32,000 nucleotides of DNA from Candidatus Nitrospira inopinata (GTDB lineage: Bacteria > Nitrospirota > Nitrospiria > Nitrospirales > Nitrospiraceae). The stretch spans positions 2,430,001 to 2,462,000 of the forward strand of contig NZ_LN885086.1 of assembly GCF_001458695.1 (NCBI RefSeq). The letters run 5' to 3'. Within the stretch, counting starts at the first letter, position 1; every line of letters begins with the position of its first letter. The notes below the pieces were generated by a model that made no database searches, was not told where the DNA came from, and saw only the letters and a program-made list of their open reading frames with translations. Positions 3,532-26,509 of the stretch are shown in pieces. The position numbers and the translations under genes are program-made.

Positions 3532-4880
3532 TGCGCAAATTGTTTGGAACCGACGGAGTTCGGGGGGTGGCCAATCTCCATCCGATGACCAGCGAAATGG
3601 CGATGCAGTTGGGCCGGGCGGCCGCCCATATTTTCATGAGGCGGGCGGGACGGCATCAAATCGTGATCGGCAAAGACACGCGGCTGTCCGGCTATATGCT
3701 CGAATCGGCTTTAACGTCCGGTATCTGTTCCATGGGAGTCGATGTGCTCTTGGTCGGACCGATGCCGACCCCGGCCATTGCGTTTCTCACGCGCAGCTTG
3801 CGAGCCGATGCGGGAGTCGTCATTTCCGCCTCGCACAACCCGTATCAAGATAACGGCATCAAATTTTTTTCGAGCGATGGATTGAAGTTGCCCGACGAAG
3901 TGGAGGCTCGAATCGAGCAGCTCATCGTCTCGGATGAGATTCGTCATCTCCGGCCGACCGCCGATCAGATCGGGAAGGCCTATCGCATCGACGACGCAGA
4001 CGGGCGATATATCGAGTTCGTCAAGCGGTCGGTTCCGCGCGATCTTGATTTTCAAGGCATCAAGCTGGTCGTGGATTGCGCCAACGGCGCCGCGTACAAG
4101 GTGGCGCCGACGGTGCTTAAGGAGTTGGGCGCCAAGGTCGAGGTGATCGGTAATCAACCCAACGGCATGAACATCAACGCGGAGTGCGGAGCTGTTCACC
4201 CTCAGACGCTCCAGAAGGCCGTGTTGGAGACTCGGGCGGATCTTGGCATTGCGCTGGACGGCGACGCGGATCGAGGGATCTTCGTTTCGGAACAGGGGCA
4301 AATCATCGACGGCGACCACGTCATGGCCGCCTTGGGGCTTGATCTCCATCGCCAAGGACTATTGGCCAAACGGACCGTCGTCGGCACGGTCATGAGCAAC
4401 TACGGGTTGGAACGTTCGCTGTCGAAAGCCGGCGTGACGCTGGTGCGCACTCCGGTGGGTGATCGCTATTTGTTGGAGCGGATGCAGGCGGACGGCTATA
4501 ATTTCGGCGGCGAGCAATCCGGCCATTTCATTTTTCTCGACCACAATACGACCGGAGACGGTTTGATTTCGGCGTTGCAAGTGCTGTCTCTTATGAAAAG
4601 AACGAAACAGCCCTTGTCGGAATTGGCCAGAGCGATGGAGCCGGTTCCGCAAATTCTTCGCAACGTCGAGGTGGCGAGGAAACCGGATCTTGAATCGATT
4701 CCCGAAATCCAGCAGACCATGCGAGAAAGCGAACGGCGGCTGAACGGTTGCGGGCGACTCCTGGTTCGGTATTCAGGAACCGAGCCGTTGCTGCGGATTA
4801 TGGTCGAGGGCGAGGAAGATGCTCTGATTCGGGAAATCGCCGAGGATCTGGCTCGCGTCGTACACAGACATCTCGCATAA
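3528..4880 (+). CDS. glmM: phosphoglucosamine mutase
   Basis: 450 aa. Phosphoserine loop [15 protein letters not shown] and metal-binding DGDADR. Confidence 0.95.
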
Positions 4881-4905: not shown

Positions 4906-7449
4906 ATGCTGCCGTCCCTCGCCGTCGCGTTTCTTCTGGGGCTGGTCTGCGGATCGTACCTTCCATTTTTCCCCCTTTCGATTTGCCTCTTCCTGGTAGG
5001 GTTGGCCGTTGGAGCCGGTCTGCTCGAACGGGCCGGTTTGATCGAACCGCGACGCGCAACGGTCCTTTACGGTTCACTGCTTGCCGGGGTGTTGTATTGG
5101 GTCGCCGCGACTCCATTCTCTCAGTCTGAACCCTTGCCTCGCGACCCCCTGATCTCTCCTCGCACCATGGTCATCGGTCGAATCATGGCACCGGTCCAGC
5201 ACGGCCCAGGACGGCAGACCCTCCTTGTTCGCCTTGAGGAGCCGGAGTCAGGGGCCCGAATCGTGCGCCTGGTCTGGCGGGAACCGGGCGAGGCCGTGCG
5301 CTATGGCGATCTGATCTCGTTTCGGGCGAAGCTTCGCCGGCCGACGGGACTCTTGAATCCCGGCGGGTTCGACTACGCGGCCTATTTGAAACATCAGGGG
5401 ATCGACGTGACGGCGTCAGTCAACGGCGTGGAGGCCGTGCAGGTGCTGGAACCCGGAGCGGAGACGTGGCGCTGGTTTGCAGGCAATCGGATCGACCGAT
5501 GGAGATCGACGATCAGGCAAGCGGCGGTGACGTCCTTGGCTCAGCCGGCGCTCGGGATTTTTCTCGGCATTATCATCGGGGAGCGGGGCTACCTTGAGCA
5601 GGATCTTCAGGAATGGTTCATGACGACGGGCACGGTGCATCTCTTGTCGATTTCCGGGTCGCATTTGGGGCTGGTCGCGCTGGTCGTCTTTTGGGTCGTC
5701 AAACAGGGCGTGAAACGCCTTCCCTTGGCGCCGTTGCTTCACCTGTCCCGTGTCATCACTCCATCACGAACGGCGATTCTGGTCACATGGCCGATTGTGG
5801 CGCTCTACGCCTGGTTGGCCGGAGCCGAGCTGGCGACGATTCGCTCGCTGGTGATGATCACGCTGGGCATGATCGCCTTGTGGCTGGGATATGAACGCCG
5901 CCTGTATCACGCGGTGGCCGCCGCGGCCCTGCTGATCGTGCTGCACAACCCGCACGCGATCTACGACATCTCGTTTCAGCTCTCCTTCGCGTCGGTGTTG
6001 ATGATCGTTCAATTGCTGTCCTGGCTGGAGTCCAAACCGGAAAACGAAGCCGACGGTTCGCTGACCCTCATGCGTCAAGCCGTCCGCTACGGCCGCGATG
6101 CGTTGCTGACGAGCACGGCGGTGACTGTGGGAACGGCGCCGCTTGTCGCCCTGTATTTTAATCAGATCCCTTGGATGGGGATTGCGACCAATCTCGTGGC
6201 GGTTCCGTTTACGGGGGGGCTGTTGGTTCCGCTGGGATTGCTTGCCGCGGCATGGACGGTCGTCGCCGATGCCGGGGGGCTTGTCATGGGCACGGTGTTG
6301 GAACCGTTGCTGGACGGGCTGGCGCAGGCGCTCCGTTGGTGCGCCGGCATTCCCGGAGGAGCATGGCATATAGCCGCTCCCTCGATGGTGTCGATGATCG
6401 TTTTCTACGCCGCGCTCGCCTCGGCCGTTGCAAGGTCGATGTCCCGTTCTCTTCGATTCATGGCGGCGACCCTCGTGGTTCTTACGATTGGATGGTGGGG
6501 ATTGTCGCCTCGCCTGGGACTGGACGGAGATCGTTGGCGCGTGACGTTCCTCGACGTCGGCCAAGGAGACAGCGCCGTGATCGAATTGCCGGACGGACGG
6601 ACGGTCTTGATCGACGGCGGCGTCAGGTACGAGCGATTTGACATGGGGCGGGCCGTCGTGGCGCCGTTTCTCTGGAACAGAGGCATCGACCATATCGACC
6701 ACGTTGTGGCGACCCATCAACAGCTTGATCACGTCGGAGGACTGATTTGGGTGCTCCGCCATATGCCGGTCGGACGGTATTGGCACAATGGAACCGAGCG
6801 GTCGGAGCAATTTGTCGCCGACTTAACGGCCGTGTTGGACGCAAAACGAATTCCCAAATCCCTTGCGGCTCGCGGGCAAGACCTGGTGCGGTCCGGATCT
6901 TGTGCGTTGACGGCTCTTAACCCGAGTTATGCGACGCCGAATCATGGAGTGCAAGAGACCGGAACGATCCGGCGGGACGGGACGTTTTTGAACAACCAGT
7001 CCATCGTCTTGCGGTTAAAGTGCGGGGAGCAGTCGCTGTTGTTTGCCGCCGATCTTGAGAGGGCGGGTATTCGGCGATTGGGTGAAGAGGGACGACAGCC
7101 GGTGACGGTGGTGAAAGTGCCCCATCACGGGGCGCGCAGCTCGCTCGATCGGGACTGGATCAGGCAGATTCAACCCCGGTATGCCGTCATTTCGGCCGGT
7201 CGAGGCAATGTCTATGGCCATCCGGTGGCCGATGTCCTGCAAGCCTATGCCGACGTGCAGGCGTCGGTGTTGCGGACCGATCGGGATGGAGCCATCTGGA
7301 TCGAGGGCCGGCTGTCGTCATCCGACCTAACCGTGATCCGTATGCGAGATCGGCTGATCGAACCCCTGTCATGGCGCCATTGCCTGTTGGAATGTGAGCG
7401 AGAAAATTGGCGCCGCGCTTGGATGCAATGGCGAGACCGTTGGGACTGA
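4906..7449 (+). CDS. comEC: DNA internalization competence protein ComEC/Rec2
   Basis: 847 aa. Long polytopic membrane core followed by a C-terminal metallo-beta-lactamase-like domain (FLDVGQGDS, ATHQQLDHVGG, VPHHG). Confidence 0.85.
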   Translation: MLPSLAVAFLLGLVCGSYLPFFPLSICLFLVGLAVGAGLLERAGLIEPRRATVLYGSLLAGVLYWVAATPFSQSEPLPRDPLISPRTMVIGRIMAPVQHGPGRQTLLVRLEEPESGARIVRLVWREPGEAVRYGDLISFRAKLRRPTGLLNPGGFDYAAYLKHQGIDVTASVNGVEAVQVLEPGAETWRWFAGNRIDRWRSTIRQAAVTSLAQPALGIFLGIIIGERGYLEQDLQEWFMTTGTVHLLSISGSHLGLVALVVFWVVKQGVKRLPLAPLLHLSRVITPSRTAILVTWPIVALYAWLAGAELATIRSLVMITLGMIALWLGYERRLYHAVAAAALLIVLHNPHAIYDISFQLSFASVLMIVQLLSWLESKPENEADGSLTLMRQAVRYGRDALLTSTAVTVGTAPLVALYFNQIPWMGIATNLVAVPFTGGLLVPLGLLAAAWTVVADAGGLVMGTVLEPLLDGLAQALRWCAGIPGGAWHIAAPSMVSMIVFYAALASAVARSMSRSLRFMAATLVVLTIGWWGLSPRLGLDGDRWRVTFLDVGQGDSAVIELPDGRTVLIDGGVRYERFDMGRAVVAPFLWNRGIDHIDHVVATHQQLDHVGGLIWVLRHMPVGRYWHNGTERSEQFVADLTAVLDAKRIPKSLAARGQDLVRSGSCALTALNPSYATPNHGVQETGTIRRDGTFLNNQSIVLRLKCGEQSLLFAADLERAGIRRLGEEGRQPVTVVKVPHHGARSSLDRDWIRQIQPRYAVISAGRGNVYGHPVADVLQAYADVQASVLRTDRDGAIWIEGRLSSSDLTVIRMRDRLIEPLSWRHCLLECERENWRRAWMQWRDRWD

Positions 7450-7541
7450 TGGAGCCGGAGCGTTCATAACACGGAGGGAATTTCTCGGCTGGATGAGAAG
7501 GGGCTTGTACTCCCGCGTGATTCCGGTTAGAAGATCCATCC

Positions 7542-8624
7542 ATGGTTCGCACGGTTGAATGGTCGAACGGGATTGTCCGGCTGTTGGATCAGAGTCGGCT
7601 GCCGGAAACGGTCGAGTTCCTTGATTGCCGGGATTACCGCGAGGTCGCCGACTCGATCCGCAGCCTGAAGGTCCGCGGCGCTCCCGCCATCGGTGTGACG
7701 GCGGCATTGGGGATCGCCCAAGGGGCGCAGGCTGTGGAGGAGAGGGACTATGAATCGTTTGTCGGCGCAGTGAATCGCATTTGCGACTGTTTGGCCGCGA
7801 CGAGGCCGACCGCCGTGAATCTCTTTTGGGCGATCGATCGAATGAAGCGGACCATTCAATCGCTGAAGGGCCGACCGATCGCGGCGATCAAGCAAGCCTT
7901 GATTGATGAAGCGTTGGCGATTCTTGAGGAAGACGTTCAACTGTGCCGGGCGATGGGGCGGCATGGAGCGGAACTCATCCAAGACGGCCAAACCGTCTTG
8001 ACCCATTGCAACGCCGGGGCGCTCGCGACGGCCGGCTATGGGACCGCGCTGGGCGTGATCCGCGCGGCATGGGAACAGGGCAAGAAGATCGCCGTCGTTG
8101 CGGATGAAACCAGGCCGGTCCTCCAAGGAGCGCGGTTGACCGCGTGGGAATTGATGCAGGATCGGATTCCCGTGACCCTCATCACGGACAACATGGCCGG
8201 CGCCCTCATGAGACAGGGCAAGATCGACCTGTGCGTGGTGGGGGCGGACCGTATCGCGGCAAACGGCGATGTGGCCAACAAGATCGGGACCTATTCGGTC
8301 GCTGTGCTGGCCAAGGCCCATGGCATTCCCTTCTACGTGGCGGCTCCCTATTCGACCATCGACACGCGGACACGATCAGGGGCCGACATTCCGATCGAAC
8401 AGCGCGATCCACTCGAAGTCACCACTATCCACGGCAGCCGCTCCATCGCCCCGGAAGGAGTCTCGGTCTATAATCCAGCCTTCGACGTGACTCCCGCGGA
8501 CTTCATCACCGCGATCATCACCGAACGAGGCGTTTTCAAGCCGAACGAACTGGTCGATGCGCTTCGTCTGAGCCGGATGCAGTCTCACCTGCAGCGTGAA
8601 GACGACGATTCTCGGGGCCAATGA
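7542..8624 (+). CDS. mtnA: S-methyl-5-thioribose-1-phosphate isomerase
   Basis: 360 aa. N-terminal LLDQSRLP...VRGAPAIG and [18 protein letters not shown] motifs of the MtnA/eIF-2B-like family. Confidence 0.88.
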
Positions 8625-8655
8625 GAAAATCTTCACACCCCATACGTTGAATAAG

Positions 8656-8684
8656 TTGCAACCCCTCCGGTGTCCACTTATAAT
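8656..8684 (+). promoter_or_regulatory. candidate sigma70 promoter of ndk
   Basis: TTGCAA (8656-8661), exactly 17 nt, consensus TATAAT (8679-8684). AGGAG site at 8721-8725 precedes the ATG at 8736. Confidence 0.55.
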
Positions 8685-8735
8685 GCGCCGCGACGTCATT
8701 CGTTTTCTTTTATTTTCTGAAGGAGTTATCAAATA

Positions 8736-9155
8736 ATGCCAGAAAGAACGTTAGCGATCATCAAGCCGGATGCCGTGAGAAAAAACGTGATCGGGGACAT
8801 TATCAACCGTTATGAAAAAGCCGGCTTAACGCCGGTCGCGATGAAGATGATCCACATGTCGAAGCCGGCCGCGGAAGGATTTTACGCCGTGCATAAGGCG
8901 AGGCCGTTCTTTGACAGTCTCTGCACGTTCATGTCATCGGGGCCGGCGGTCGTGCTGGTGCTGCAAGGCGACAACGCAATCAAAAAAAATCGGGAGCTGA
9001 TGGGCGCAACGGACCCCGCCAAGGCCGAGCCCGGAACCATTCGGCATATCCACGGCACGAACATTGAGTTCAACGCCGTCCATGGATCGGATTCTCATGA
9101 AACGGCGAACTTCGAGATCGGGTATTTTTTCCCCGGCATGGAAATTTTTGGATAA
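8736..9155 (+). CDS. ndk: nucleoside diphosphate kinase
   Basis: 139 aa. [12 protein letters not shown] start and active-site NAVHGSDS. Confidence 0.96.
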
Positions 9156-9199
9156 CCCATCAAGAGACTCATTGACCTTCAAGTCGATCGCGCTCTTTC

Positions 9200-9229
9200 T
9201 TGACAAAGCCCGGCCGGTCCCACTACGAT
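9200..9229 (+). promoter_or_regulatory. candidate sigma70 promoter of gcvH-lpdA
   Basis: TTGACA (9200-9205), 18 nt, TACGAT (9224-9229). Motif match only. Confidence 0.3.
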
Positions 9230-9334
9230 CCGCGATCGTCACGGGCAAAAATTCGACTCACAGAGCTGGTGACCAGAAGAATCGCGCCGGCGACGTTCCG
9301 GCCGTTTATAACAACCGTTTCGCGTGGGGCATCC

Positions 9335-9724
9335 ATGATTCCATCGGATTTGCGATATCACACCGAGCATGAGTGGGTTCGCGTAGACGGCAAGCAGGCG
9401 ACCATTGGGATCAGCCATTTTGCCCAAGACGCCTTGGGCGACATTGTGTTCGTGGATTTGCCCAAGGTCGGTACCGCCGTCAAAAGCGGCCAACAGATCG
9501 GCGAAGTGGAATCAACGAAAACCACCAGCACCATTTACACGCCGGTGAGCGGAACGATCGTGCAAGTCAACAACGAACTCAAGGACCATCCTGAGCGGAT
9601 GAATTCCGATCCTTACGGCAAGGGGTGGATCACCGTCATTGAGCTGGCCGATCCGGGGGAAGTCGAACGATTGATGACGGCGCCGCAGTACGAAGCGTTT
9701 CTTGCCAGTCAAAAGACGGGTTAG
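9335..9724 (+). CDS. gcvH: glycine cleavage system protein H (lipoyl carrier)
   Basis: The track ORF opens at 9200. The family-typical N-terminus MIPSDLRYHTEHEWV starts at ATG 9335. Lipoyl-lysine motif GEVESTKT. Confidence 0.9.
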   Translation: MIPSDLRYHTEHEWVRVDGKQATIGISHFAQDALGDIVFVDLPKVGTAVKSGQQIGEVESTKTTSTIYTPVSGTIVQVNNELKDHPERMNSDPYGKGWITVIELADPGEVERLMTAPQYEAFLASQKTG

Positions 9725-9828
9725 GGTGAAGACGAACAAGAAAGGCACTGTACAACAGTCTTCATTCATAAGTCCGGAACCCTGACTCAGTCAGATTGAA
9801 AGCTGGGGCCCATCAGTCCCATCCCGCC

Positions 9829-11262
9829 ATGTCCGATCGCATTCACATTGCCATCCTCGGCGCCGGTCCAGGCGGCTATGTCGCCGCTATCCGCGCGGCT
9901 CAGCTTGGAGCCCGTGTGACAGTTATTGAACAACAAATTCTGGGCGGGGTGTGCCTCAATTGGGGCTGCATTCCCAGCAAGACGTTGCTGTCCATTATCG
10001 ATCTTGGCGACAAGCTGAAACAGGCGGGGGACCTCGGGATCATCCTGAACGACCAGCCGCGCTACGATCCAGCCAGGATGGTGGCCAGGAAAAACAAGGT
10101 CGTCTCAGGGTTGGTCAAGGGAATCGCGACGCTCTTCAAGGCATGGAACATCGACGTCGTTACGGGACGGGGGGAGTTGATCGACAATAAGACGATCGCC
10201 GTCATTGATGCCGCCGGCGCCACGACGCAGGTCCGGGCGGATGCGGTGGCGATCGCAACCGGTTCGTCCTGGCCGCAACTCCCACAGTTTCCCATCGACG
10301 GCAAGCGGATCATCACCAGCAGGGAGGCGCTGGACCTGGAAACGGTTCCCAAACGGATGGTCATTCTCGGCGCCGGTGTTGAAGGATGTGAATGTGCGAC
10401 ATTGTTTAGCGGGCTCGGCTCGGCGGTGACGTTGGTGGAGTTGCAGCCTCGCGCGCTTCCATTGGAGGATGACGACGTCTCGCTATTGATGGAGCGGGAG
10501 TTGAAAAAACGGTCGGTCGAAGTGAAGACCGGCACCACGATTCAAACAGTCGAACATCGGCCGGATGGATTGGCTGTGACGTTGGCCGATGGATCGACGG
10601 TCGAAGCCGACACGTTGTTGGTGTCCATTGGGCGGGGCTTTCGGTCGAAAGGAATCGGGCTGGACCGTGTCGGTGTGGCGCTGGGGCCACGGGGGGAAGT
10701 GCTGGTCAACGAGCGGATGGAGACCAACGTGCCTGGCGTCTATGCGATCGGCGACGTGGTCGGCAAGGCCATGTTGGCCCACGTGGCCTCGGCCCAAGGC
10801 AAGGTCGCGGTCGAAAATATTCTTGGCCGTGATTCCACCATGAATTACGATGTGATTCCAGCCGGCATCTTCACCTTGCCGGAGGTGGGCCGTGTCGGGT
10901 TGACGGAACGGCAGGCGCGAGAACGGGCTCAAGCGAGGGGGGACGATCCTGAGCGGGTCGTCAAGGTCGGGCGGTTTCGGTATGCCGCCTTGGGAAAAGC
11001 ACAGGCGACCGGAGAAACTGCCGGGCTGTTCAAGATCATCGCCGATGCCGCAACCGGCAAGATCCTAGGCGCGCATCTTGTCGGGAGCCACGCGGCGGAT
11101 TTGGTGCACGAAGTGGCGTTGGCCATGGAGGTCGGCGCGACCGCCGACCAGGTGGCTCGAATGATCCATGCCCATCCGACGTTGGCCGAAGGCATCATGG
11201 AGGCCTGCGAAGACCTCGAGGCCCTGGCCATTCACCAGGTGAGAAAAAGGAGCGGCGCATGA
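9829..11262 (+). CDS. lpdA: dihydrolipoyl dehydrogenase
   Basis: FAD fold ILGAGPGGYVAA directly after ATG 9829 (the ORF opens at TTG 9796). Redox disulfide GGVCLNWGCIPSK and C-terminal HAHPTLAE. Confidence 0.92.
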   Translation: MSDRIHIAILGAGPGGYVAAIRAAQLGARVTVIEQQILGGVCLNWGCIPSKTLLSIIDLGDKLKQAGDLGIILNDQPRYDPARMVARKNKVVSGLVKGIATLFKAWNIDVVTGRGELIDNKTIAVIDAAGATTQVRADAVAIATGSSWPQLPQFPIDGKRIITSREALDLETVPKRMVILGAGVEGCECATLFSGLGSAVTLVELQPRALPLEDDDVSLLMERELKKRSVEVKTGTTIQTVEHRPDGLAVTLADGSTVEADTLLVSIGRGFRSKGIGLDRVGVALGPRGEVLVNERMETNVPGVYAIGDVVGKAMLAHVASAQGKVAVENILGRDSTMNYDVIPAGIFTLPEVGRVGLTERQARERAQARGDDPERVVKVGRFRYAALGKAQATGETAGLFKIIADAATGKILGAHLVGSHAADLVHEVALAMEVGATADQVARMIHAHPTLAEGIMEACEDLEALAIHQVRKRSGA

Positions 11263-18789: not shown

Positions 18790-19952
18790 TGAACGAACTA
18801 TTGGAAAAGTATGACTCGTGGCTTAAAGATGATAGCAATGTCGCAGCGGTGACGGTGCGGCAGTGGCTTGAACCGGTTGAAGGTAAAGACGCCATTATTT
18901 TCCCGCCTACCTACCCAATTGAAGGTAATGCTGGCTACTCGATCGACCGCATCGATGGGTTTACTGTTTGTCAAATCGATAGCGTGGGATCACAAGCAAA
19001 CCGTATCGAGCCCATTTTTTTGCGGGAGCAATATTGCGACCTTGTGCCGAAGGTGATCATTAGAGCGACGGTGGATGGCAGGGAGAGGTCTATTCATCTT
19101 CTTGAGGCTGGCCACCGTGCAGCGGATGCCATTGTCCGCTTTTCAACGCTCGGAGCGCGGATTCACGAGGCATTTCGGGCTATCCATGAGAACGGTGATG
19201 CAACTCTCTTGGCACGCATTGCGCCAACCTCCCTCGTCTTCGGTGTTTGGGATTCCCGAGCAACGCAAGTGAAACTTCCGAGAGTGCTTCGCTCAGTCAT
19301 CCGCGCATTTGACGTGTACGAGTTGCACCGTTCCGCTCAATATTCAACTCTTGCTGGAGAGCTCTTGGAGGGCCCAGATGTGGAAGTGACAACAAAGGGT
19401 GTGAAAGCGGAGCTAGGTCTAGCCCACGTACCCTCTGTTAAAACCCATGGTGGTATCAGGGTTAAAGGCGAAATTCGAAGGGATGCCGCCTTAAACGTTG
19501 TTGCAATTCGCTCTTTGGCATCAGGGCCTGACAACGAGATAGGCACTCTCTCACTGCGTCGTTACGTTCTTGGGTTGGCTCTGGTTGGACTCACATTCGA
19601 ACAAGACTTCTCACTTCGAGAAGGCTGCCAGCTCATACCAGACAAAGGACGTCCGCCTGAATGGAAAATTATTCTCCACGATGGCACACGCAAAGACATT
19701 GTGCTAACGCACAGGGAATCGATTGAGTACGCAAGGAAAGCCGCGGAACAGTTTGGTATCGGCCAAGATGCCACAGGCGAATTCGAAGCAATGCTTGCCC
19801 GCAAAATCCAGGAACTTCCGGAGAAAGATCGCAAGGCGTTGTTGCGCAAGGGGCCTGTGACAATGGAAGCAATAGAGGAGTTCTTGAAGAAGAGAAAAAC
19901 GAAAGGGAAAACCACGAAGGAACCTGACGCTTCCGAAGGAGGCGAGGAGTGA
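18786..19952 (+). CDS. csb1: type I-G Cas7 backbone protein (Csb1/GSU0053 family)
   Basis: 388 aa. Segments IIFPPTYP and IDSVGSQANRIEP match my recollection of the GSU0053 family. Translationally coupled on both sides (ATGA and GTGA overlaps). Confidence 0.75.
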   Translation: MMNELLEKYDSWLKDDSNVAAVTVRQWLEPVEGKDAIIFPPTYPIEGNAGYSIDRIDGFTVCQIDSVGSQANRIEPIFLREQYCDLVPKVIIRATVDGRERSIHLLEAGHRAADAIVRFSTLGARIHEAFRAIHENGDATLLARIAPTSLVFGVWDSRATQVKLPRVLRSVIRAFDVYELHRSAQYSTLAGELLEGPDVEVTTKGVKAELGLAHVPSVKTHGGIRVKGEIRRDAALNVVAIRSLASGPDNEIGTLSLRRYVLGLALVGLTFEQDFSLREGCQLIPDKGRPPEWKIILHDGTRKDIVLTHRESIEYARKAAEQFGIGQDATGEFEAMLARKIQELPEKDRKALLRKGPVTMEAIEEFLKKRKTKGKTTKEPDASEGGEE

Positions 19953-21517
19953 CAGTCCATCTTTGCATCTCAGTAACGTTTATTGATCCATTGTTTCATG
20001 GAAGAGGTGACCACGAAGAACCTGAGTGGCCGCCTTCGCCGTTACGGCTCTTTCAAGCCATGCTATCAGGAGCACGAATTGCGTCTGGCTGTCACGTTCC
20101 AGGCGATGACTTCAAAGCGTTCTTGTGGTTGGAAAAGCAGAATGCGCCGCAAATAGTTGCACCATTAGCGCGGGAAATGGCTGCTCGTCGCTACTATGTG
20201 CCTAATAACGATAGTGACAAGAAATTCGAGAGGCAGGATCGACTTGCCGAGAAAATATTCCAACCTCATCGAATGTGCGGCAACGATTCAACCACAGTTC
20301 ATTACGTTTGGGCTCTCCGTAGCTCTCTGTTGGGTGAGGAACCCACGCGCATCGAGATACTCAAAGGTGTTGCCCGTAAACTTGTTGCATTGGGTTGGGG
20401 CATCGACATGGCTGTCGGACATGCTGCAGTGCTGTCCGATGAAGAGGTCAAAGCCTTACCCGGTGAGCGGTGGGTACCAGGGAGAGAAGGCAGTGCAGGG
20501 GGGTTGCGTGTGCCGGTGCCCGGCGCGCTCAAGGCCCTTATTGCGCGGCATGAACGTTTTCTCAAACGGGTGCGAGAAGACGGCACATTTGATCCCACGC
20601 CGCCCTTGCAAGAGTCTGTGTATAAGCGAGTCGAATATCGCCGGGTCACTGATCCACCGCTGAGGTCTTTCGCGGCGTTTTCACTTCTGAAGCTCGATGC
20701 CAGCCGGTTCCAGCCATTTGATCCAGTGGGTAGAGGGCTAACCTTGGCAGGGATGTTGCGGCACACGGTGGCATGTGCTGCTCGTCGCGCGGGATGGCCT
20801 GAGTCGACAATCAACGCCTTCGTCCTTGGACACGGGGGATCGAAGAACGGGCATCACGTTCCTGTCGGTCCTCACCGGTTTGCCTATTTGCCGCTCCCGA
20901 GTCTCGAGGGACGCGGCGAGGGGAAATCGCGTGTTGTTGGAAATATCCGCCGAATCCTGCTCACGTCCTTTACAGAAGACTGTGAGGTTAAGGTCGGCTG
21001 GGCGCGCCGGGCTTTGTCGGGCTGTGATCTTATCGATGAGGAGCACAGGCGGTCCGTAGCGATGCTATCGCTTCTTCCCAATAATGAAAAGATCGTGCGT
21101 TGCTATGTCGAGCCTGCCGATACCTGGGCAACTGTCACACCCGTTGTCTTGCCTGGCTACGATGACCCGGCGCACTATCGAAGACGATTGAAGAAAGTGA
21201 CGACTGCCGACGAGCAAAGGCGGTTGCTTGAGCGGCTGGACGAGCGCATTGACCGCTTGCTGCGCAAGGCTATTGTCCAGGCGGGTTTTTCTCACGAGCT
21301 TGCCACCCATGCAGAACTGCAATGGCGGAAATCAGGATTCTGGCCGGGAACTGATCTCGCTGACCGTTATGGTGTGCCCGACCACTTGAAACGGTTTTCC
21401 CGGTGGCATGTGCAGTTGCGCTGGCGGGATGCACAGAGGCGGCTCATCGCGGTGTCAGGCCCTCTGTGCTTGGGGGGCGGCCGCCATTACGGCTTGGGGC
21501 TTTTTGCGGCGGTGTAG
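19949..21517 (+). CDS. csb2: type I-G Csb2 (Cas5-Cas6 fusion, GSU0054 family)
   Basis: 522 aa. N-terminal FHGRGDHEEPEWPPSPLRLFQAM signature and C-terminal glycine-rich RAMP loop LCLGGGRHYGLGLF. Confidence 0.8.
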   Translation: MTVHLCISVTFIDPLFHGRGDHEEPEWPPSPLRLFQAMLSGARIASGCHVPGDDFKAFLWLEKQNAPQIVAPLAREMAARRYYVPNNDSDKKFERQDRLAEKIFQPHRMCGNDSTTVHYVWALRSSLLGEEPTRIEILKGVARKLVALGWGIDMAVGHAAVLSDEEVKALPGERWVPGREGSAGGLRVPVPGALKALIARHERFLKRVREDGTFDPTPPLQESVYKRVEYRRVTDPPLRSFAAFSLLKLDASRFQPFDPVGRGLTLAGMLRHTVACAARRAGWPESTINAFVLGHGGSKNGHHVPVGPHRFAYLPLPSLEGRGEGKSRVVGNIRRILLTSFTEDCEVKVGWARRALSGCDLIDEEHRRSVAMLSLLPNNEKIVRCYVEPADTWATVTPVVLPGYDDPAHYRRRLKKVTTADEQRRLLERLDERIDRLLRKAIVQAGFSHELATHAELQWRKSGFWPGTDLADRYGVPDHLKRFSRWHVQLRWRDAQRRLIAVSGPLCLGGGRHYGLGLFAAV

Positions 21518-21557
21518 CATTCTTACTCTCGGTCATTCCGCCCACTTCGGGCTCGGC

Positions 21558-21578
21558 CAGTTCATGTCGGCGGGGGAG
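21558..21578. repeat. left copy of a 21-nt direct repeat bracketing the ATPase cassette
   Basis: CAGTTCATGTCGGCGGGGGAG. It matches 22402-22422 at 20 of 21 positions. Confidence 0.8.
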
Positions 21579-21699
21579 CAGCATGAGATGTGATGTGAGT
21601 GGTGGAGCGGGAGAGGAAAAACAGTGTGCTTCGCACATCTGAAGATGAGAGGGAGTCGTTGAATGTGCTGATGAGAGTTCATGGGGCGGTGGCGGTAAC

Positions 21700-22230
21700 G
21701 TGAGAGACTGGAAGGCCAAACGTCCCCGGTGCATTGTGATTGCCGGGCCAAACGGCGCGGGGAAGACAACGTTCGCGCGAGAGTTTCTCACTCGAGAGGC
21801 GGGCGTGATTCACTTTGTCAATGTTGATTTGATCGCGAGCGGACTCTCGCCCCTTCGCCCAGAACTGGCGGCGCGGCGGGCAGGACGGCTTGTATTGGCG
21901 GAACTCAACCGATTGGCAAGGGCCCGCAAGGATTTTGCCTTTGAGAGCACGTTGAGTGGGCGGACCTACCTCGGAATGCTCAGACGGTGGAAAACCGCCG
22001 GTTATCGAATCGAGATGGTGTTCCTGCTGTTGCCGTCGGTCGAACTGGCGCTCCGACGTATTGCAGTGCGAGTTCGACAAGGCGGGCACAACGTGCCACG
22101 GGGTGACGTCATCCGGCGTTTTGGCCGAAGTTGGAACAACTTTCGAACGCTCTATCGTCCCTTGGCAGATGTGTGGGTTGTGTATGACACTTCAGGAGAG
22201 ATCCCACAATTATTGGAGGAAGGTCCATGA
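21700..22230 (+). CDS. zeta-toxin-like P-loop ATPase/kinase (COG4185-like)
   Basis: 176 aa, GTG start. Walker A IVIAGPNGAGKTTFAREF, then FESTLSG and the QGGHNVPRGDVIRRFGRS segment typical of this small AAA/zeta-like family. Confidence 0.75.
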   Translation: MRDWKAKRPRCIVIAGPNGAGKTTFAREFLTREAGVIHFVNVDLIASGLSPLRPELAARRAGRLVLAELNRLARARKDFAFESTLSGRTYLGMLRRWKTAGYRIEMVFLLLPSVELALRRIAVRVRQGGHNVPRGDVIRRFGRSWNNFRTLYRPLADVWVVYDTSGEIPQLLEEGP

Positions 22231-22385
22231 GGCAGAAAAATGGTATGCCGGAGACCAAAGCATTCGTTCGGATGGTTCGTCGAGCGTTGCGACGCGCCTT
22301 CAAGATGGCTAGGAAAGCGGCGCAAGCGCACCACACACCCATTTATCTCTGGCGTAATGGCAAGGTTGTGGCGGAGAAACCATGA
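22227..22385 (+). CDS. 52-aa basic ORF translationally coupled to the ATPase (possible cognate antitoxin or partner)
   Basis: Not in the ORF track (under 60 aa). ATG 22227 overlaps the ATPase stop as ATGA. Translation: MRQKNGMPETKAFVRMVRRALRRAFKMARKAAQAHHTPIYLWRNGKVVAEKP. It ends 17 nt before the right 21-nt repeat copy. Confidence 0.45.
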   Translation: MRQKNGMPETKAFVRMVRRALRRAFKMARKAAQAHHTPIYLWRNGKVVAEKP

Positions 22386-22401
22386 AAGAGAAAACCTCTG
22401 G

Positions 22402-22422
22402 CAGTTCATGCCGGCGGGGGAG
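22402..22422. repeat. right copy of the 21-nt direct repeat bracketing the ATPase cassette
   Basis: CAGTTCATGCCGGCGGGGGAG. One transition relative to 21558-21578. Confidence 0.8.
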
Positions 22423-22508
22423 TCGGAGCGTTGTTGATGGCTCGTGCGAGGTGAAGCGCGTGGCGGCAAAGCGGTCAACGGCCGATCGCTGTGGGAAAGG
22501 AGGGCCCT

Positions 22509-22940
22509 ATGTGGTGGATGGTCATGATGATAGTGATGGTGTTCACCGGTCCGGGCTCTACCCGGGCGGAGTATCTCGGCGACTTGAGCGCCAATCCGTT
22601 CAACCCGAATTCCCTGGCGAATCCTTTCGGCGTCGGCTCGCCGTTTCTTTACAAGAGCCCAACGAACCCGTTTGGGCCCTATGGCAGTCCGTTCAGCAAT
22701 CGGTCGGCGACCAATCCCTTTGCGACGCAGGCCCCGCGACTCTATGACCGGGCAGGAAACTACCGAGGCCGGTTAAGCGCGAACCCGTATGATCCCGACT
22801 CCATCAGCAACCCCTTCGGGCGCTATGGCAATCCCTTCTCGCCCGACAGCGTGAACAATCCGTTCGGGGCGGGCAGTCCGTTCCGGTTCGACAGCCCCAA
22901 CAACCCCTACGGCTCGGGGTGGATCATCGTCGGGGAATGA
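22509..22940 (+). CDS. small secreted NPF/NPY-repeat protein, function unknown
   Basis: GGAAAGGAGGG site before ATG 22509 (the track ORF opens at GTG 22491). Hydrophobic signal-like N-terminus MWWMVMMIVMVFTGPGSTRA/EY. Nine NPF or NPY motifs follow (ANPFNP, ANPFGV, TNPFGP, TNPFAT, ANPYDP, SNPFGR, GNPFSP, NNPFGA, NNPYGS). Confidence 0.65.
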   Translation: MWWMVMMIVMVFTGPGSTRAEYLGDLSANPFNPNSLANPFGVGSPFLYKSPTNPFGPYGSPFSNRSATNPFATQAPRLYDRAGNYRGRLSANPYDPDSISNPFGRYGNPFSPDSVNNPFGAGSPFRFDSPNNPYGSGWIIVGE

Positions 22941-22977
22941 GATGCCCGTGGAGAAGGCACAAGAGACGGGCGATGCG

Positions 22978-23577
22978 CTACGGGAGCAAATCGGCGACGG
23001 CGATGGATGCGGTAGGGGCAGCGAGCAGCGAAATGGTGTCGGAGGGGCCGAGCTTGACGTGTGAACGGTACGACGCCGGTTGGCCGGAGGGTGTGACGGG
23101 ATCGCGGAAAACTTCCAGACACCGTTCCAAAAGGTTGATGATCCAGTATTCCGGGATGCCGGCTCGGGCGTAGAGCGGGGCTTTCCGGTCACGGTCGAGG
23201 GAAAGCGTTGTATCGGCGACCTCGACGACGAGCATCGCCGTGCGAGGATGCTCTTTTAAATATTCTTCTGGGTCGCCCGGCACCACCGCCAGGTCCGGTT
23301 CCGGCTCCGAGTCAGGATCAATCAAGAGGGGCATTTGTATGCGGACCCAGAACCCCTGTCCGAAGATGCGCTCGAGGACGCGCTGTGTTTTGCCGATGGT
23401 GACGGCATGCGGACTATTCCGCGGGGTCATCGCGATGATCTCTCCCTCAATCAATTGGATGTGCTCATTCGGATCAAGAATGCCCGATTCAGCCAAACGG
23501 TCATATTCCTGGCAGGTCCAGCGTTTGGTGTGGACGGTGGGAGCAGACATCGTCGGCCTCATATCATCAATTGTCAA
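22978..23577 (-). CDS. Uma2 family (DUF820) putative PD-(D/E)xK endonuclease
   Basis: Family-typical segments: WTCQEYDRLAESGIL, IQLIEGEII, EPEPDLAVV, LVVEVADTTLSLDRDRKAPLYARAGIPEYWIINL. The likely true start is ATG 23550, which has GAGG 6 nt upstream. The ORF opens at TTG 23577. Confidence 0.8.
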   Translation of the reverse strand: MTIDDMRPTMSAPTVHTKRWTCQEYDRLAESGILDPNEHIQLIEGEIIAMTPRNSPHAVTIGKTQRVLERIFGQGFWVRIQMPLLIDPDSEPEPDLAVVPGDPEEYLKEHPRTAMLVVEVADTTLSLDRDRKAPLYARAGIPEYWIINLLERCLEVFRDPVTPSGQPASYRSHVKLGPSDTISLLAAPTASIAVADLLP

Positions 23578-23615
23578 AAGTCTAGCAAACAGCCTGGCGG
23601 CTCACAAGCACAGGG

Positions 23616-23838
23616 TCCCGTTCTTTGACAACTGAATAGTTTCAGGCCCTCTGCCGATAAGAGAGGGTATGGAACGCGAAGCATTTGCCGATGGAGCAGG
23701 GAACGAGGCGATGCCCTTGCTCCCTGCTCGGATGGTCAACGAATTTGCCTATTGCCCGCGGCCCGCCTATTTCGAATGGGTAGATGGGGTCTTCGCCGAC
23801 AGTGCCGACACGGTGGAGGGCCGGTTTCCATACCGTTC
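23616..23838. repeat. copy 1 of a ~223-bp direct duplication (cas4-cas1 upstream region plus first ~56 codons)
   Basis: Offset to copy 2 is exactly 757 bp. There are 4 mismatches in the first 205 bp, and similarity decays over the last ~18 bp. Confidence 0.9.
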
Positions 23839-23881
23839 CCGCGGTATTTGGAGAAGAAAGGGAATGCCCAAAATTCTTTAG
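23669..23881 (+). pseudogene. cas4: truncated cas4-cas1 5' fragment
   Basis: MEREAFADGAGNEAMPLLPARMVNEFAYCPRPAYFEWVDGVFADSADTVEGRF is near-identical to the N-terminus of the intact gene at 24426. The reading frame then runs into unrelated sequence and stops. Confidence 0.85.
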
Positions 23882-24090
23882 AGCAGGTCTTTGAACCGTT
23901 CGAGAGAAATGTCGGCAGCGTCAAGGATGTGTTTCAGTGTCCCGGGCTTGATGACATGATGCCGGGGAATAATGACGATCTGTTTCTCGTTAGTCATCGA
24001 AATATGTTTGCCCTCGCGCAGGACAGAGAAGCCGGCTCGTTTCAGGGCTCTCACGACACGTTCATGAGAGACCTGCGGGAGCTTGCTCAT
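23878..24090 (-). CDS. hicA: HicA family mRNA-interferase toxin
   Basis: 70 aa. SHERVVRALKRAGFSVLREGKHISM...IIPRHHVIKPGTLKHIL is typical of HicA/YcfA. 4-nt overlap with hicB. Confidence 0.85.
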   Translation of the reverse strand: MSKLPQVSHERVVRALKRAGFSVLREGKHISMTNEKQIVIIPRHHVIKPGTLKHILDAADISLERFKDLL

Positions 24091-24290
24091 GCGCCGACTA
24101 CGACGGTTCTCAATTTCTTAAGTCGCTTCAAATCCTCGATGCTCTCGAGGTAGATCTTGATGGCATCCTTGATGTTTTCCAGGGCTTCTTCCTCGGTCTC
24201 GCCCTGCGAGACACAGCCCCTGAGCGTCGGGCAATACACCACGTACCCGCCGGCTTCCCGATCCTGCTCAACGATGACGGGATATTCCAT
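24087..24290 (-). CDS. hicB: HicB family antitoxin (UPF0150 fold)
   Basis: 67 aa. MEYPVIVEQDREAGGYVVYCPTLRGCVSQGETEEEALENIKDAIKIYLE is typical of the HicB N-terminal domain. Confidence 0.85.
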   Translation of the reverse strand: MEYPVIVEQDREAGGYVVYCPTLRGCVSQGETEEEALENIKDAIKIYLESIEDLKRLKKLRTVVVGA

Positions 24291-24320
24291 AGGTACCTCG
24301 TTAGTTGTGAGGACGAAACC

Positions 24321-24329
24321 ATTATAGCA
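24321..24329 (-). promoter_or_regulatory. candidate extended -10 promoter of hicBA
   Basis: The minus strand reads TGCTATAAT (TGn plus consensus TATAAT) about 30 nt upstream of the hicB ATG. GAGGT site precedes the start. Confidence 0.45.
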
Positions 24330-24372
24330 AAATGCGAAGGTTGTATGCGGCGGTGTGTGGGGTGAAGAAATA

Positions 24373-24595
24373 TCCCGTTCTTTGACAACTGAATAGTTTC
24401 AGGCCCTCTGCCGATAAGAGAGGGTATGGAACGCGAAGCATTTGCCGATGGAGCAGGGAGCGAGGCGATGCCCTTGCTCCCTGCTCGGATGGTCAACGAA
24501 TTTGCCTACTGCCCGCGGCTCGCCTATTTCGAATGGGTAGATGGGGTCTTTGCCGACAGTGCCGACACGGTGGAGGGTCGCTTCCATCACCGGCA
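24373..24595. repeat. copy 2 of the ~223-bp direct duplication (functional cas4-cas1 5' end)
   Basis: See copy 1. Both copies include the palindrome ACTGAATAGTTTCAG and the AGAGAGGG ribosome-binding site. Confidence 0.9.
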
Positions 24596-26150
24596 GGTGG
24601 ATCGCGAGCCGGTCAGGCCGACCCGACGAGCGGCAGATGGTGACGAGCAAGAGCCTGTATTGCACCAGCGGTCGGTCTGGCTGTCATCCGAACGGCTGGG
24701 CGTCACGGCCAAGATCGATCTGGTGGAAGGAGAGGTGCCGTCACCAGATGGCCAACCACAAGTTGTCACGCCCGTGGATTACAAACGTGGCAAACGTCCC
24801 CACACGGCCAAGGGTGCGTGGGAGCCGGAGCAAGTGCAGCTTTGCTTGCAAGGGTTGCTGCTCCGCGAGCAGGGCTATCGGTGCGACCGCGGAATCCTCT
24901 ATTTCGTCGGCTCCCGGGAACGAGTGCCCATCGAATTCGATGAGACCTTGATTGGGCGGACATTGGAGTTGGTGGAGGGTATGCGCGCCATGACCAGGCA
25001 GGCGGTTGCGCCACCGCCGTTGGTCGACAGCCCCAAATGTCCGCGCTGTTCGCTGGTGGGGCTGTGCCTGCCTGATGAAATCGGCTGGTTGCGTCAGGCT
25101 GGAGAAGGTGAGGCGCCGGCAGTTCGTCAATTGTTGCCGTCACGGGATGATGCCCTGCCGCTGCACGTCCAAACCCCCGGTGCCAGAATTGGCAAAGAGG
25201 GTGACTGTTTAGTGATCAAAGATCATGACGAGATCCTCGGCGAAGCTCGGTTGGTGGAAACCTCCCAGGTGGTGCTCTATGGTGCAGTTCAAGTGAGCAC
25301 GCAAGTGGTTCAGGAACTATGCAAGCGCGAGATTCCACTCATCTATTGTTCGAGCGGGGGCTGGTTCTATGGACTGACGACTGGTCTCCCGCACAAACAT
25401 GTCGAACTTCGACGACGCCAATATACAGCGGCGGCCGACCCGGTACAGTGCCTGCGACTGGCCAAACGGTTTGTCCAAGCCAAGATCGCCAATTGCCGCA
25501 CATTGATCCGTCGCAATCATCCCGATGTGCCGGATCTGCTGTTGCAGGAGCTCAAGGTGGATCAAGGCCAGGCCGGCGAAGCAGGGTCCCTGGAGTCGCT
25601 GCTCGGCGTCGAAGGCACAGCGGCCCGTCGGTACTTCGGTGCGTTTGGGGCTCTGGTGCGGGATGAAGCGATGCGGGCTCGGTTTGATGCCGAAGGACGC
25701 AATCGCCGTCCACCACGGGATCCAATCAATGCGCTCCTGTCGTTTGCCTATGCGATATTGGCGAGGGAATGGACGGTGGTGGTGCACAGTGTGGGGCTCG
25801 ATCCGTATCTGGGCTTTTATCACCAGCCGCGCTACGGGCGTCCGGCGTTGGCGCTCGACATGATGGAAGAGTTTCGGCCGTTGATTGCCGATTCGGTGGT
25901 GCTGACGGCCGTCAATAATGGCGAAGTACAGAGTGCCGATTTCATCCAGCGACTGGGGAGTGTCAGTCTCACACCGGAAGGGCGGCGGAAGTTTATCGCG
26001 ACCTACGAGCGTCGTATGAGTCAGGAGATCACGCATCCGGTTTTCGGCTATCAAGTCAGCTATCGTCGGGTGTTGGAGGTGCAGGCAAGATTGTTGGGCC
26101 GGTATCTGCTGGGGGAGATTCCAGAACTGCCGCCGATCATCACCCGGTAA
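24426..26150 (+). CDS. cas4/cas1: Cas4-Cas1 fusion (adaptation nuclease/integrase)
   Basis: 574 aa. Cas4 half: N-terminal YCPR cysteine, DLVEGE...VDYKRGK RecB-type motif, C-terminal CPRCSLVGLC cluster cysteines. Cas1 half: GVEGTAARRYF, NALLSFAYAIL, GLDPYLGFYHQPRYGRPALALDMMEEFRP. Confidence 0.93.
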   Translation: MEREAFADGAGSEAMPLLPARMVNEFAYCPRLAYFEWVDGVFADSADTVEGRFHHRQVDREPVRPTRRAADGDEQEPVLHQRSVWLSSERLGVTAKIDLVEGEVPSPDGQPQVVTPVDYKRGKRPHTAKGAWEPEQVQLCLQGLLLREQGYRCDRGILYFVGSRERVPIEFDETLIGRTLELVEGMRAMTRQAVAPPPLVDSPKCPRCSLVGLCLPDEIGWLRQAGEGEAPAVRQLLPSRDDALPLHVQTPGARIGKEGDCLVIKDHDEILGEARLVETSQVVLYGAVQVSTQVVQELCKREIPLIYCSSGGWFYGLTTGLPHKHVELRRRQYTAAADPVQCLRLAKRFVQAKIANCRTLIRRNHPDVPDLLLQELKVDQGQAGEAGSLESLLGVEGTAARRYFGAFGALVRDEAMRARFDAEGRNRRPPRDPINALLSFAYAILAREWTVVVHSVGLDPYLGFYHQPRYGRPALALDMMEEFRPLIADSVVLTAVNNGEVQSADFIQRLGSVSLTPEGRRKFIATYERRMSQEITHPVFGYQVSYRRVLEVQARLLGRYLLGEIPELPPIITR

Positions 26151-26218
26151 ACGGCGCATGGGCTGACGAGTGGATTATATGGGTAAGAGGGACTCACCTT
26201 GGCGGCGAGAGGGTACTC

Positions 26219-26509
26219 ATGCGGCGCTGCTATTTAGTGGCGTACGACATCGCCGATCCCAAGCGACTGCGTCGGGTGTATAAGACGATGAAAGGATACG
26301 GTGCGCATGTGCAATTGTCCGTCTTCCAGTGCGATCTGCCGGAGATGGACCTCATTCGGATGAAGGCAGCGCTGACGGAGATCATTCACCACAAAGAAGA
26401 TCAGGTGCTGATCATCGACTTAGGGCCGACTGACAGTCACCCCATCAAGCGATTTGAAGCCTTGGGCATGGCGATCGAGGTGGAGGAGCGACAGCCTCGC
26501 GTGATATAG
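26219..26509 (+). CDS. cas2: CRISPR-associated endoribonuclease Cas2
   Basis: 96 aa. YLVAYDIADPKRLRRVYKTMKGYGAHVQLSVFQCDL is typical of Cas2. Confidence 0.92.
   Translation: MRRCYLVAYDIADPKRLRRVYKTMKGYGAHVQLSVFQCDLPEMDLIRMKAALTEIIHHKEDQVLIIDLGPTDSHPIKRFEALGMAIEVEERQPRVI

Follow-up and report, generated by a model that had tools for sequence, protein, structure and literature searches.

In the stretch of the Candidatus Nitrospira inopinata genome analysed here (32,000 nucleotides, hereafter the window), a small two-gene cassette resembling a toxin-antitoxin (TA) pair has been found between the type I-G CRISPR gene csb2 and the next gene downstream. It is bounded on both sides by copies of a short element whose sequence is related to the 3' coding end of csb2. 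In related loci the same repeats enclose other cassettes, and the same design recurs at the ends of cas6b and guaA. The reading that we favour, with somewhat more confidence than doubt, is that the repeats are att-like and arose by tandem accretion at a gene 3' end, the TA pairs being deletion-resistant remnants comparable to cis-mobilizable elements (CIMEs). TA genes have often been noticed in CRISPR-cas loci, with the route of their arrival left unexplained, and in the present case the junctions can be resolved to the single base. Should this reading hold, the end of a Cas6-type gene would be an integration hot spot, and short gene-end relics would mark decayed mobile elements and exchangeable TA cassettes at sites from which the integrase has gone. 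The slot also offers a concrete test of whether TA pairs stabilise CRISPR-cas loci.

Housekeeping genes fill the first 15 kb of the window. The slot itself is preceded by a type I-G effector operon, of which csb2 is the last gene, and is followed by an NPF-repeat ORF, a Uma2 gene, hicAB, cas4/1, cas2 and a CRISPR array of 49 repeats. The csb2 gene (19949..21517, plus strand) encodes the type I-G Cas5-Cas6 fusion (Pfam Cas_GSU0054, E=2.5e-132; NCBIfam TIGR02165), and its real C-terminus, ending in CLGGGRHYGLGLFAAV before the stop codon (about 21470-21517, plus strand), is identified by the C-termini of its homologues. Beyond it, all on the plus strand, lie the primary copy of the element described below (E1, ~50 nt, 21528..21578), a purine-rich leader 5' of the ATPase gene (21579..21699), the gene of a 176-aa P-loop kinase assigned through Pfam to the zeta-toxin/AAA_33 group and presumed to be a toxin (21700..22230), a basic 52-aa ORF that overlaps the ATPase stop (ATGA) and is presumed to encode the antitoxin (22227..22385), a partial secondary copy of the element (E2, 22396..22422) and the NPF-repeat protein gene (22509..22940). 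This last gene is the next unit of the gap and is conserved in two related loci, L088 and L093. The leader is cassette-specific, with no counterpart in other loci: homology with L088 stops at 21574 and with L090, another related locus, at 21578, and homology with two loci carrying related ATPases (L024 and L107) begins only at the ATPase coding sequence. A terminator-like hairpin is present in the leader on the minus strand (21625-21637).

An earlier note on this DNA had reported a 21-nt direct repeat, identical at 20 positions, around a cassette consisting of the ATPase gene and the 52-aa ORF alone, with csb2 upstream, the NPF-repeat ORF downstream and no recombinase present, and had considered a chance origin of the repeat very unlikely. 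Each of these points has been borne out. Copy 1 (CAGTTCATGTCGGCGGGGGAG, 21558-21578, plus strand) forms the last 21 nt of E1 and copy 2 (CAGTTCATGCCGGCGGGGGAG, 22402-22422, plus strand) the last 21 nt of E2; they agree at 20/21 positions (consensus CAGTTCATG(T/C)CGGCGGGGGAG) and constitute both edges of the ATPase/52-aa cassette. Nothing other than the two genes is found between the copies, csb2 ends at 21517, the NPF-repeat ORF starts at 22509, and a pair of this kind arose in 0 of 100 dinucleotide shuffles. Neither the window nor any of the fetched loci yielded an integrase or another recombinase. The repeat can be extended leftward to 27 nt, with 24/27 identical (21552-21578 / 22396-22422), and no third copy of the 21-mer occurs in the 32-kb window with up to 3 mismatches allowed. 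The note had also suggested a search for the 21-mer and the cassette elsewhere: the cassette was recovered in many contexts, and a scan of 185,579 species-representative genomes with the 21-mer pattern gave a single chance match. This match is located in a coding sequence that we take, from a motif in its translation, to be the 2-oxoglutarate dehydrogenase E1 component, and the scan did not return the source assembly GCA_001458755.1, in which the pattern was expected twice. Matches to a profile of the longer element across 161 kb were confined to cas gaps and csb2 ends. The scattered, REP-like distribution that the note had named as its refutation was thus not encountered in the sequence covered (the 32-kb window, the 161 kb and the species-representative genomes), and the view that the repeats resemble att-type sites in their behaviour, and not REP elements, is partly supported.

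Across 21400-22520, sequence identity is 100% among all 22 contigs on which the window's own proteins occur. These contigs belong to the source strain, so that population evidence of mobility is absent, and the comparison was accordingly moved to the loci of Csb2 homologues that are 60-76% identical, several of which are named Nitrospira by NCBI. There, the 21-mer proves to be the right-hand part of a longer conserved element of ~50 nt, termed E. The primary copy lies 10-25 nt past the csb2 stop in seven of seven related loci (10 nt in the window) and scores 23-36 bits against the E profile in all seven, while the sequence flanking it is unalignable between loci. The further copies detected with the profile are weaker and mostly truncated at the 5' end; all are on the plus strand and lie behind the cassettes, whatever the orientation of the cassette. 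They have been located in the window (22396-22422), L088 (9590-9625), L090 (9563-9602), L093 (7765-7798), L097 (8213-8248 and 9508-9552) and L095 (about 8630-8669).

The relationship of E to csb2 becomes apparent when it is translated. In frame, E1 reads LGHSAHFGLGQFMSAGE, with a stop at 21591-21593, and E2 reads LWQFMPAGE, with a stop at 22435-22437; the orthologue of E2 in L088 (9590-9625) retains more of the element (HFGLGQFTPAGE). The in-frame consensus, (L)GHS[AS]HFGLGQF[MV]x[AV], agrees in both length and pattern with the true Csb2 C-terminus, LGGGR[FYH]YGLGLFAAx followed by the stop, and 7/12 residues are common to LGHSAHFGLGQF and LGGGRHYGLGLF, which are of equal length. The core motif, HFGLGQF in E and HYGLGLF at the end of csb2, corresponds to the glycine-rich loop of Cas6, the crRNA-processing RNase that makes up the C-terminal domain of Csb2 (PMC9638904). 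In a six-frame translation of 0.5 Mb, the pattern [FYH][FY]G[LIV]G[LQ]F was restricted to Csb2 ends and E copies, with the exception of viral contigs that had been picked for this set by the same peptide pattern; the six matches in viral contigs proved to be chance occurrences in unrelated sequence and were rejected as copies of E. Other matches of the E profile with E<1 in 161 kb were found exclusively at real csb2 3' ends. Together with the restriction of the peptide pattern, this identifies E as a diverged paralogue of the 3' end of the csb2 coding sequence. The C-termini of 120 Csb2 homologues are nearly all GGGR[FY]YGLGLFAAx before the stop, and none of the 120 has a C-terminus of the E type. 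A search of a representative library with the 31-aa E-frame peptide returned the self ORF alone; as for proteins ending in the E peptide, a word-index search with a chimeric query gave no candidates, and nothing was found by tblastn against plasmids.

Despite having no start codon, E diverges like coding sequence. Variable sites in the E core are distributed 3/4/9 over codon positions 1/2/3, with 11 sites of each position (p about 0.01); the synonymous share of codon differences is 40% in the E frame versus 13-24% in the other five frames, and leucine codons alternate between CTC, CTG and TTG. The two E copies of L088 encode the same HFGLGQF with different synonymous codons and are thus not recent duplicates of one another. 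This mode of divergence fits gene ends that were once functional, or ends carried on elements that must restore the gene. A small ORF or an extension of csb2 was considered and rejected, as the frame of E relative to csb2 varies (0, +1, +2) and three loci are without a start codon. A different view would assign E a regulatory role, as DNA or RNA (an operator, part of a promoter, a terminator or a processing site), reused before or after each transcription unit, so that the repeat would reflect function instead of mobility. E1 is indeed the best-conserved DNA of the gap, with 82-89% identity between loci compared with about 75% for the cassette genes and 72-77% for csb2, and its flanks are unalignable; two CA(C/G)TTC half-sites lie 15 nt apart, and weak E-like stretches occur just upstream of the ATPase gene (21677-21697) and of MNT genes. 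We nevertheless regard this view as quite unlikely, since substitutions patterned by codon (CTC/CTG/TTG) are not produced by a binding site, and since in L107 and L037, described below, the equivalents of E have clearly been copied from the coding ends of cas6b and guaA. Moreover, E has no conserved secondary structure or RNA fold, the covariation term being unfavourable, and no promoter- or terminator-like site was detected at it.

The exchangeable nature of the slot is seen most directly in L088, which is syntenic with the window (tyrS, WYL, cas3 ... NPF, Uma2, hicAB, cas4/1). The two are 95% identical up to 21574, and similarity of 93-95% restarts exactly at 22402; in between, L088 contains an MNT/HEPN pair in place of the ATPase pair, with both repeat copies present. 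The two-gene cassette proposed in the earlier note is both conserved and exchangeable. In L090, similarity to the window breaks off precisely at 21578, after which comes a PIN-MazE pair in inverted orientation; L089 carries an MNT-HEPN cassette, and L095 and L097 carry ParE with a Phd-like ORF, Rv0078B/AbiEii-like genes, MNT and HicB. The gap between csb2 and cas4/1 in Nitrospira-type I-G loci is thus an array of small cassettes, mostly TA pairs. The distant I-G loci L105 and L106 are compact, with csb2 immediately followed by cas2 and cas4/1, and contain neither E nor cassettes. Similarity between cassettes of different loci is limited to the coding regions, at about 75% identity, which indicates that the exchanges are old. 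The first slot of L093 has no TA cassette and consists of csb2, E, about 70 nt with a perfect REP-like hairpin, a partial E and the NPF gene. The earlier note had anticipated an empty site with a single repeat copy between csb2 and the NPF gene; none was seen for this slot, the nearest case being L093 with its two copies about 70 nt apart.

These comparisons bear on the suggestion, also made in the earlier note, that the repeat is an att-like or duplication scar of the cassette's insertion. Its att-like part has stood, the breakpoints being located at the repeats, but the repeats were not made by the insertion of this ATPase cassette. A target-site duplication or a one-off att scar would place direct repeats exactly at the cassette boundaries, as observed, and would agree with right halves that are more alike within a locus than between loci (ATG(T/C)CGGCGGGGGAG in the window, GTGGCGGTGGGGGAG in L090). 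Orthologous repeats, however, flank another cassette in L088 and the hairpin region of ~70 nt in L093, so that the copies either predate the ATPase cassette or are independent of it. The repeat length also varies between 27 and 45 nt among loci, 21-27 nt exceeds the range of duplications made by transposases, and the 25 longest inverted repeats of the window include none at the cassette ends. A scar of this single insertion is consequently improbable.

It may also be asked whether the cassettes were swapped between related CRISPR loci purely by homologous recombination of the RecA type. E would then be an inert leftover from a long-past duplication of the end of csb2, marking no more than the point at which conserved sequence stops. 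In favour of such exchange, the loci show mosaicism, since over its 5' 440 nt the csb2 of the window is unrelated to that of L088 and the remainder is 95% identical, and a recombinase was found neither in the window nor in the fetched loci. An inert relic, on the other hand, should not keep 82-89% identity and codon-like changes where Csb2 is only 60-76% identical, and recombination over long flanks leaves the presence of E between every cassette unexplained, together with the parallels at cas6b and guaA. We consider it unlikely that RecA-type exchange accounts for the slot by itself.

The module in the window has been characterised through its homologues. The ATPase matches the Pfam families Zeta_toxin (E=2e-10) and AAA_33 (E=2e-8), scoring 40.8 bits against PF06414 over residues 57-166 (cut-off 22.3), and its match in the PDB, to the Pnkp1 kinase domain, is weak. 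The Walker A sequence GPNGAGKTT and other residues are invariant among 20 homologues compared. At least 7,981 homologues exist, many of them 75-84% identical and from different phyla; versions of 141 aa and 164 aa reflect differences in gene calling and not mutations. For the 52-aa ORF, no Pfam, NCBIfam or PADLOC family was found, although a homologue lies directly 3' of the ATPase gene in L024 (69% identical), L026, L052, L025, L038, L032, L107 and others. Similarity of the window to L024 or L107 comprises only the two coding regions and stops at the stop codon of the small ORF, and no Pfam matches were obtained in the flanks of L024. By these sequence comparisons, the two genes constitute a module that is conserved and that behaves as a discrete, swappable unit. 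In 64 of 64 metagenome loci with ATPase homologues no cas genes were found nearby, so that the module travels widely and is not bound to CRISPR. The pair is most likely a predicted toxin, a P-loop kinase of the zeta/PNK type, with a small neutralising protein, and would stabilise the DNA that carries it. In zeta-type TA systems the epsilon or PezA antitoxin is encoded upstream, and the toxin phosphorylates UDP-GlcNAc. The present pair resembles epsilon/zeta and PezAT in combining a P-loop kinase that matches Zeta_toxin with a small co-transcribed protein. It differs in that the ATPase is much shorter (176 aa) and equally close to polynucleotide-kinase-like domains, and in that the partner gene is located downstream instead of upstream and has no similarity to epsilon or PezA.

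The same design has been found at the ends of two other genes. Among ATPase homologues on long contigs, the closest (83% identical) is that of L107, where the gene order is a type I-B operon ending in cas6b, a TA-like pair, the ATPase with a 51-aa partner, MNT-HEPN, a HicB-like gene and III-B cmr genes. The spacers between these cassettes carry copies of the cas6b 3' end, of which the one at 8813-8857 is 93% identical over 45 nt (E=3e-14), with FIGLGKSVSQGFGTV corresponding to the real LIGLGKSVSRGFGTV. Further copies are present at 9087-9123 and, in more diverged form, near 7837-7909 and 9948-10010. L037, which contains a more distant ATPase homologue, has no CRISPR context; its cassette is flanked by 60-nt direct repeats, 93% identical, that represent the 3' end of guaA and code for the GMP synthase C-terminus (Pfam GMP_synt_C, E=2e-14). 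The guaA 3' end is a classical integration site of genomic islands. As a null, the longest exact repeat common to both flanks in 19 ATPase loci had a mean of 7.7 nt and a maximum of 14. As the repeats derive from the ends of csb2, cas6b or guaA depending on the locus, the repeat type follows the host site and not the cassette.

L107 is also informative on whether E might be a degenerate CRISPR repeat, acting either in a guard RNA like that of CreTA or as a pseudo-repeat that was duplicated when Cas4/1-Cas2 took up the cassette next to it as an oversized spacer. The slot adjoins cas4/1-cas2, the duplicated stretches of 27-45 nt are near the repeat length of 36 nt, and the start of E, ATTCCGCC, can be set beside ATTTCCGCGG in the CRISPR repeat. 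Against this, the 16.5 kb fetched for L107 show this architecture too, and neither cas1 nor cas2 is among the genes called there. Local alignment of the CRISPR repeat with 21518-22508 remains at chance level, its score being reached by 46/300 shuffles; Rfam CRISPR models match only the true array, and compensating changes that would preserve the putative hairpin are not seen. Among the spacers none matches the region, the longest being chance matches of 12-13 nt elsewhere in the window. This explanation is highly improbable. CreTA guard modules are TA systems within CRISPR-cas loci (PMC9458426) that work through repeat-like RNAs and Cascade, and nothing alike has been found in the slot of the window.

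The pattern of an intact gene, copies of its 3' end in one orientation and varying cargo is that of tandem accretion, and for this reason the 21-mers are read as att-like. Under the accretion reading, E would be an att-like site at which mobile DNA was inserted repeatedly, at the end of a Cas6-type gene, by site-specific or homology-driven recombination. Each insertion would leave a duplicated gene end, and csb2 would stay intact because its end is duplicated. The larger elements would then have decayed until TA pairs alone remained, these surviving because deletions that remove a TA pair would be counter-selected. The remaining units would be flanked by repeats and devoid of an integrase, like cis-mobilizable elements after tandem accretion, and recombination between E copies may still excise cassettes or swap them between loci; no excision product was seen, and no intact E-flanked element was found, in the window and the fetched loci. 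The ATPase/52-aa pair would accordingly be the remnant of an element inserted at the end of csb2. The coding-like divergence of E without present translation could be explained if gene ends borne on elements must keep coding a working end. A weak point of the accretion reading is the position of E1 shortly after a functional csb2 end that belongs to another, canonical type, an arrangement not predicted by simple replacement of the gene end. A second weak point is that no csb2 with an end of the E type was found among the 120 homologues or in the peptide searches. A bolder proposal, which we hold to be rather unlikely, is that the 3' ends of the Cas6 family (csb2 in type I-G, cas6b in type I-B) serve as the attachment site of an undescribed system that captures TA cassettes, with E selected as a working site or as a reservoir of alternative functional Csb2 C-termini. 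If it were true, CRISPR-cas loci would carry self-renewing addiction modules that protect them against loss.

Several known systems resemble the slot in part. CIMEs have been defined as units that lack integration genes and have kept attL and attR, and accretion has been defined alongside them, with examples of the ICESt1 type (PMC5704250). In Dehalococcoides, tandem islands are bounded by 20-bp copies of the ssrA 3' end (PMC3146451). As in such arrays, the direct repeats described here reproduce a target gene's 3' end, in one orientation and downstream of the intact gene, the cargo between the same repeats differs among relatives, and the units are without integration genes. Unlike in these arrays, the target is a CRISPR gene, csb2 (cas6b in L107), the first repeat is located just past the end of the functional gene and differs from that end in sequence type, and the units measure 0.8-1 kb, contain little beyond a TA pair and have no known cognate integrase. 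The arrangement also recalls integron arrays, including those of chromosomal integrons with TA cassettes, in its small cassettes of one or two genes, recurring short sites and varying content. Integron cassettes are characterised by an IntI/attI platform and by attC sites, imperfect palindromes that fold as hairpins. The slot in the window differs from them, as IntI and attI are both absent, E is neither an imperfect palindrome nor conserved in its fold, the slot cassettes occur in both orientations, and the repeats derive from the coding end of a neighbouring gene.

Within type I-G itself, a figure legend on Thioalkalivibrio sulfidiphilus notes that the interval from Csb2 to Cas4-1 holds two TA systems (PMC9638904, Fig. 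1 legend). There, as in the window, TA modules lie between the effector and adaptation genes, a position that could make the locus hard to lose. Earlier reports of TA systems in CRISPR loci noted the genes, whereas here they occupy a repeat-bounded, exchangeable slot. Tandem accretion at gene ends and the presence of TA genes in cas loci are thus already known separately; their combination, in which copies of Cas6-type gene ends bound an exchangeable TA slot in two CRISPR types, appears to be new in the literature searched.

A second bracketed TA cassette is present further downstream in the window, where hicA (23878-24090, minus strand) and hicB (24087-24290, minus strand) lie within a unit spanning 23616..24592. 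Its flanking direct repeats (23616-23835 / 24373-24592) are 220 nt long and 95% identical, and duplicate the upstream region of cas4/1 together with its first ~55 codons. The segment duplicated around hicAB is single-copy in L089, L090, L095 and L097.

A second insertion of a toxin-antitoxin (TA) cassette accompanied by duplication of a cas gene end is indicated close to cas4/1, where hicA and hicB lie on the minus strand of the window, bracketed by a 220-nt direct repeat with 95% identical copies at 23616-23835 and 24373-24592. The repeat consists of the cas4/1 upstream region and the first ~55 cas4/1 codons, and its duplication has left a truncated cas4 N-terminal ORF at 23669-23881. The insertion is deduced from the same segment being single-copy in four related type I-G loci (L089, L090, L095, and L097), and the gene end duplicated here is the 5' end, that of cas4/1. 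For this strain, many contigs assembled from short reads (L002, L003, L005, L006, L008, L012, and L013) end ~95 nt past the Uma2 gene, where the first of the two 220-nt copies lies; the repeat has probably caused an assembly break at this point.

Gene-end copies also surround TA cassettes in two loci carrying homologues of the zeta-like ATPase. In L107, a type I-B/III-B locus, an array of cassettes (6507-10312) comprising an 87+107 aa pair, the ATPase with a 51 aa ORF, MNT-HEPN and a HicB-like protein is located after the type I-B effector operon, whose last gene is cas6b, and before the type III-B cmr genes. Copies of the cas6b 3' end, at least four in number and falling into two sequence subtypes, are interspersed in this array. 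In L037, a locus lacking CRISPR context, an ATPase/small-ORF cassette is flanked by 60-nt direct repeats (4727-4786 and 5762-5821) encoding the GuaA C-terminus. No intact guaA is found upstream of this cassette, and both copies are therefore relics.

In the related type I-G locus L093, the place taken elsewhere by a TA cassette, between the two copies of E (the ~50-nt paralogue of the csb2 end found 3' of csb2), is occupied by a perfect hairpin, CCCTCTCCCTTCGAGGGAGAGGG (7728-7750). In L095, a related motif, CACCCTGGCC(T/C)TCTCC, comes after the second copy of E, and the two may represent a REP/MITE-type element. In the window, the minus strand of the leader that separates E from the ATPase start carries a terminator-like hairpin (21625-21637) with a T run after it; this could terminate an antisense transcript or be the remnant of an earlier cassette. 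Directly 5' of the ATPase start codon lies GAGTTCATGGGGCGGTGGCGG (21677-21697), a weak match to the 21-mer forming the right-hand part of E (13 of 21 positions, with AGTTCATG and a G-rich tail in common); in L088 and L089, similar weak E-like stretches occur 5' of the MNT genes. The resemblance to the 21-mer is too slight for a firm assignment.

The csb2 gene itself is mosaic. Its first ~440 nt (19949-20390) are almost unrelated in DNA to L088 (7001-7502) and L090, whereas from 20391 on the identity to L088 is 95%, a pattern that points to a recombination breakpoint within the gene; the encoded protein has 522 aa, compared to 542 aa in most relatives. Gene order also differs, with csb2-cas2-cas4/1 separated by gaps of 3-8 nt in the distant type I-G loci L105 (5001-8784) and L106 (5001-8773), and csb2-(cassettes)-cas4/1-cas2 in the Nitrospira-type loci (window 19949-26509). 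On this basis, the effector and adaptation modules seem to have been joined anew in the Nitrospira-type lineage. The gene at 22509-22940, kept at the equivalent position in L088 and L093, encodes a protein of 143 aa that is hydrophobic at its N-terminus and contains many repeats of the NPF/NPY type; no family match to it was obtained in Pfam, NCBIfam or PADLOC.
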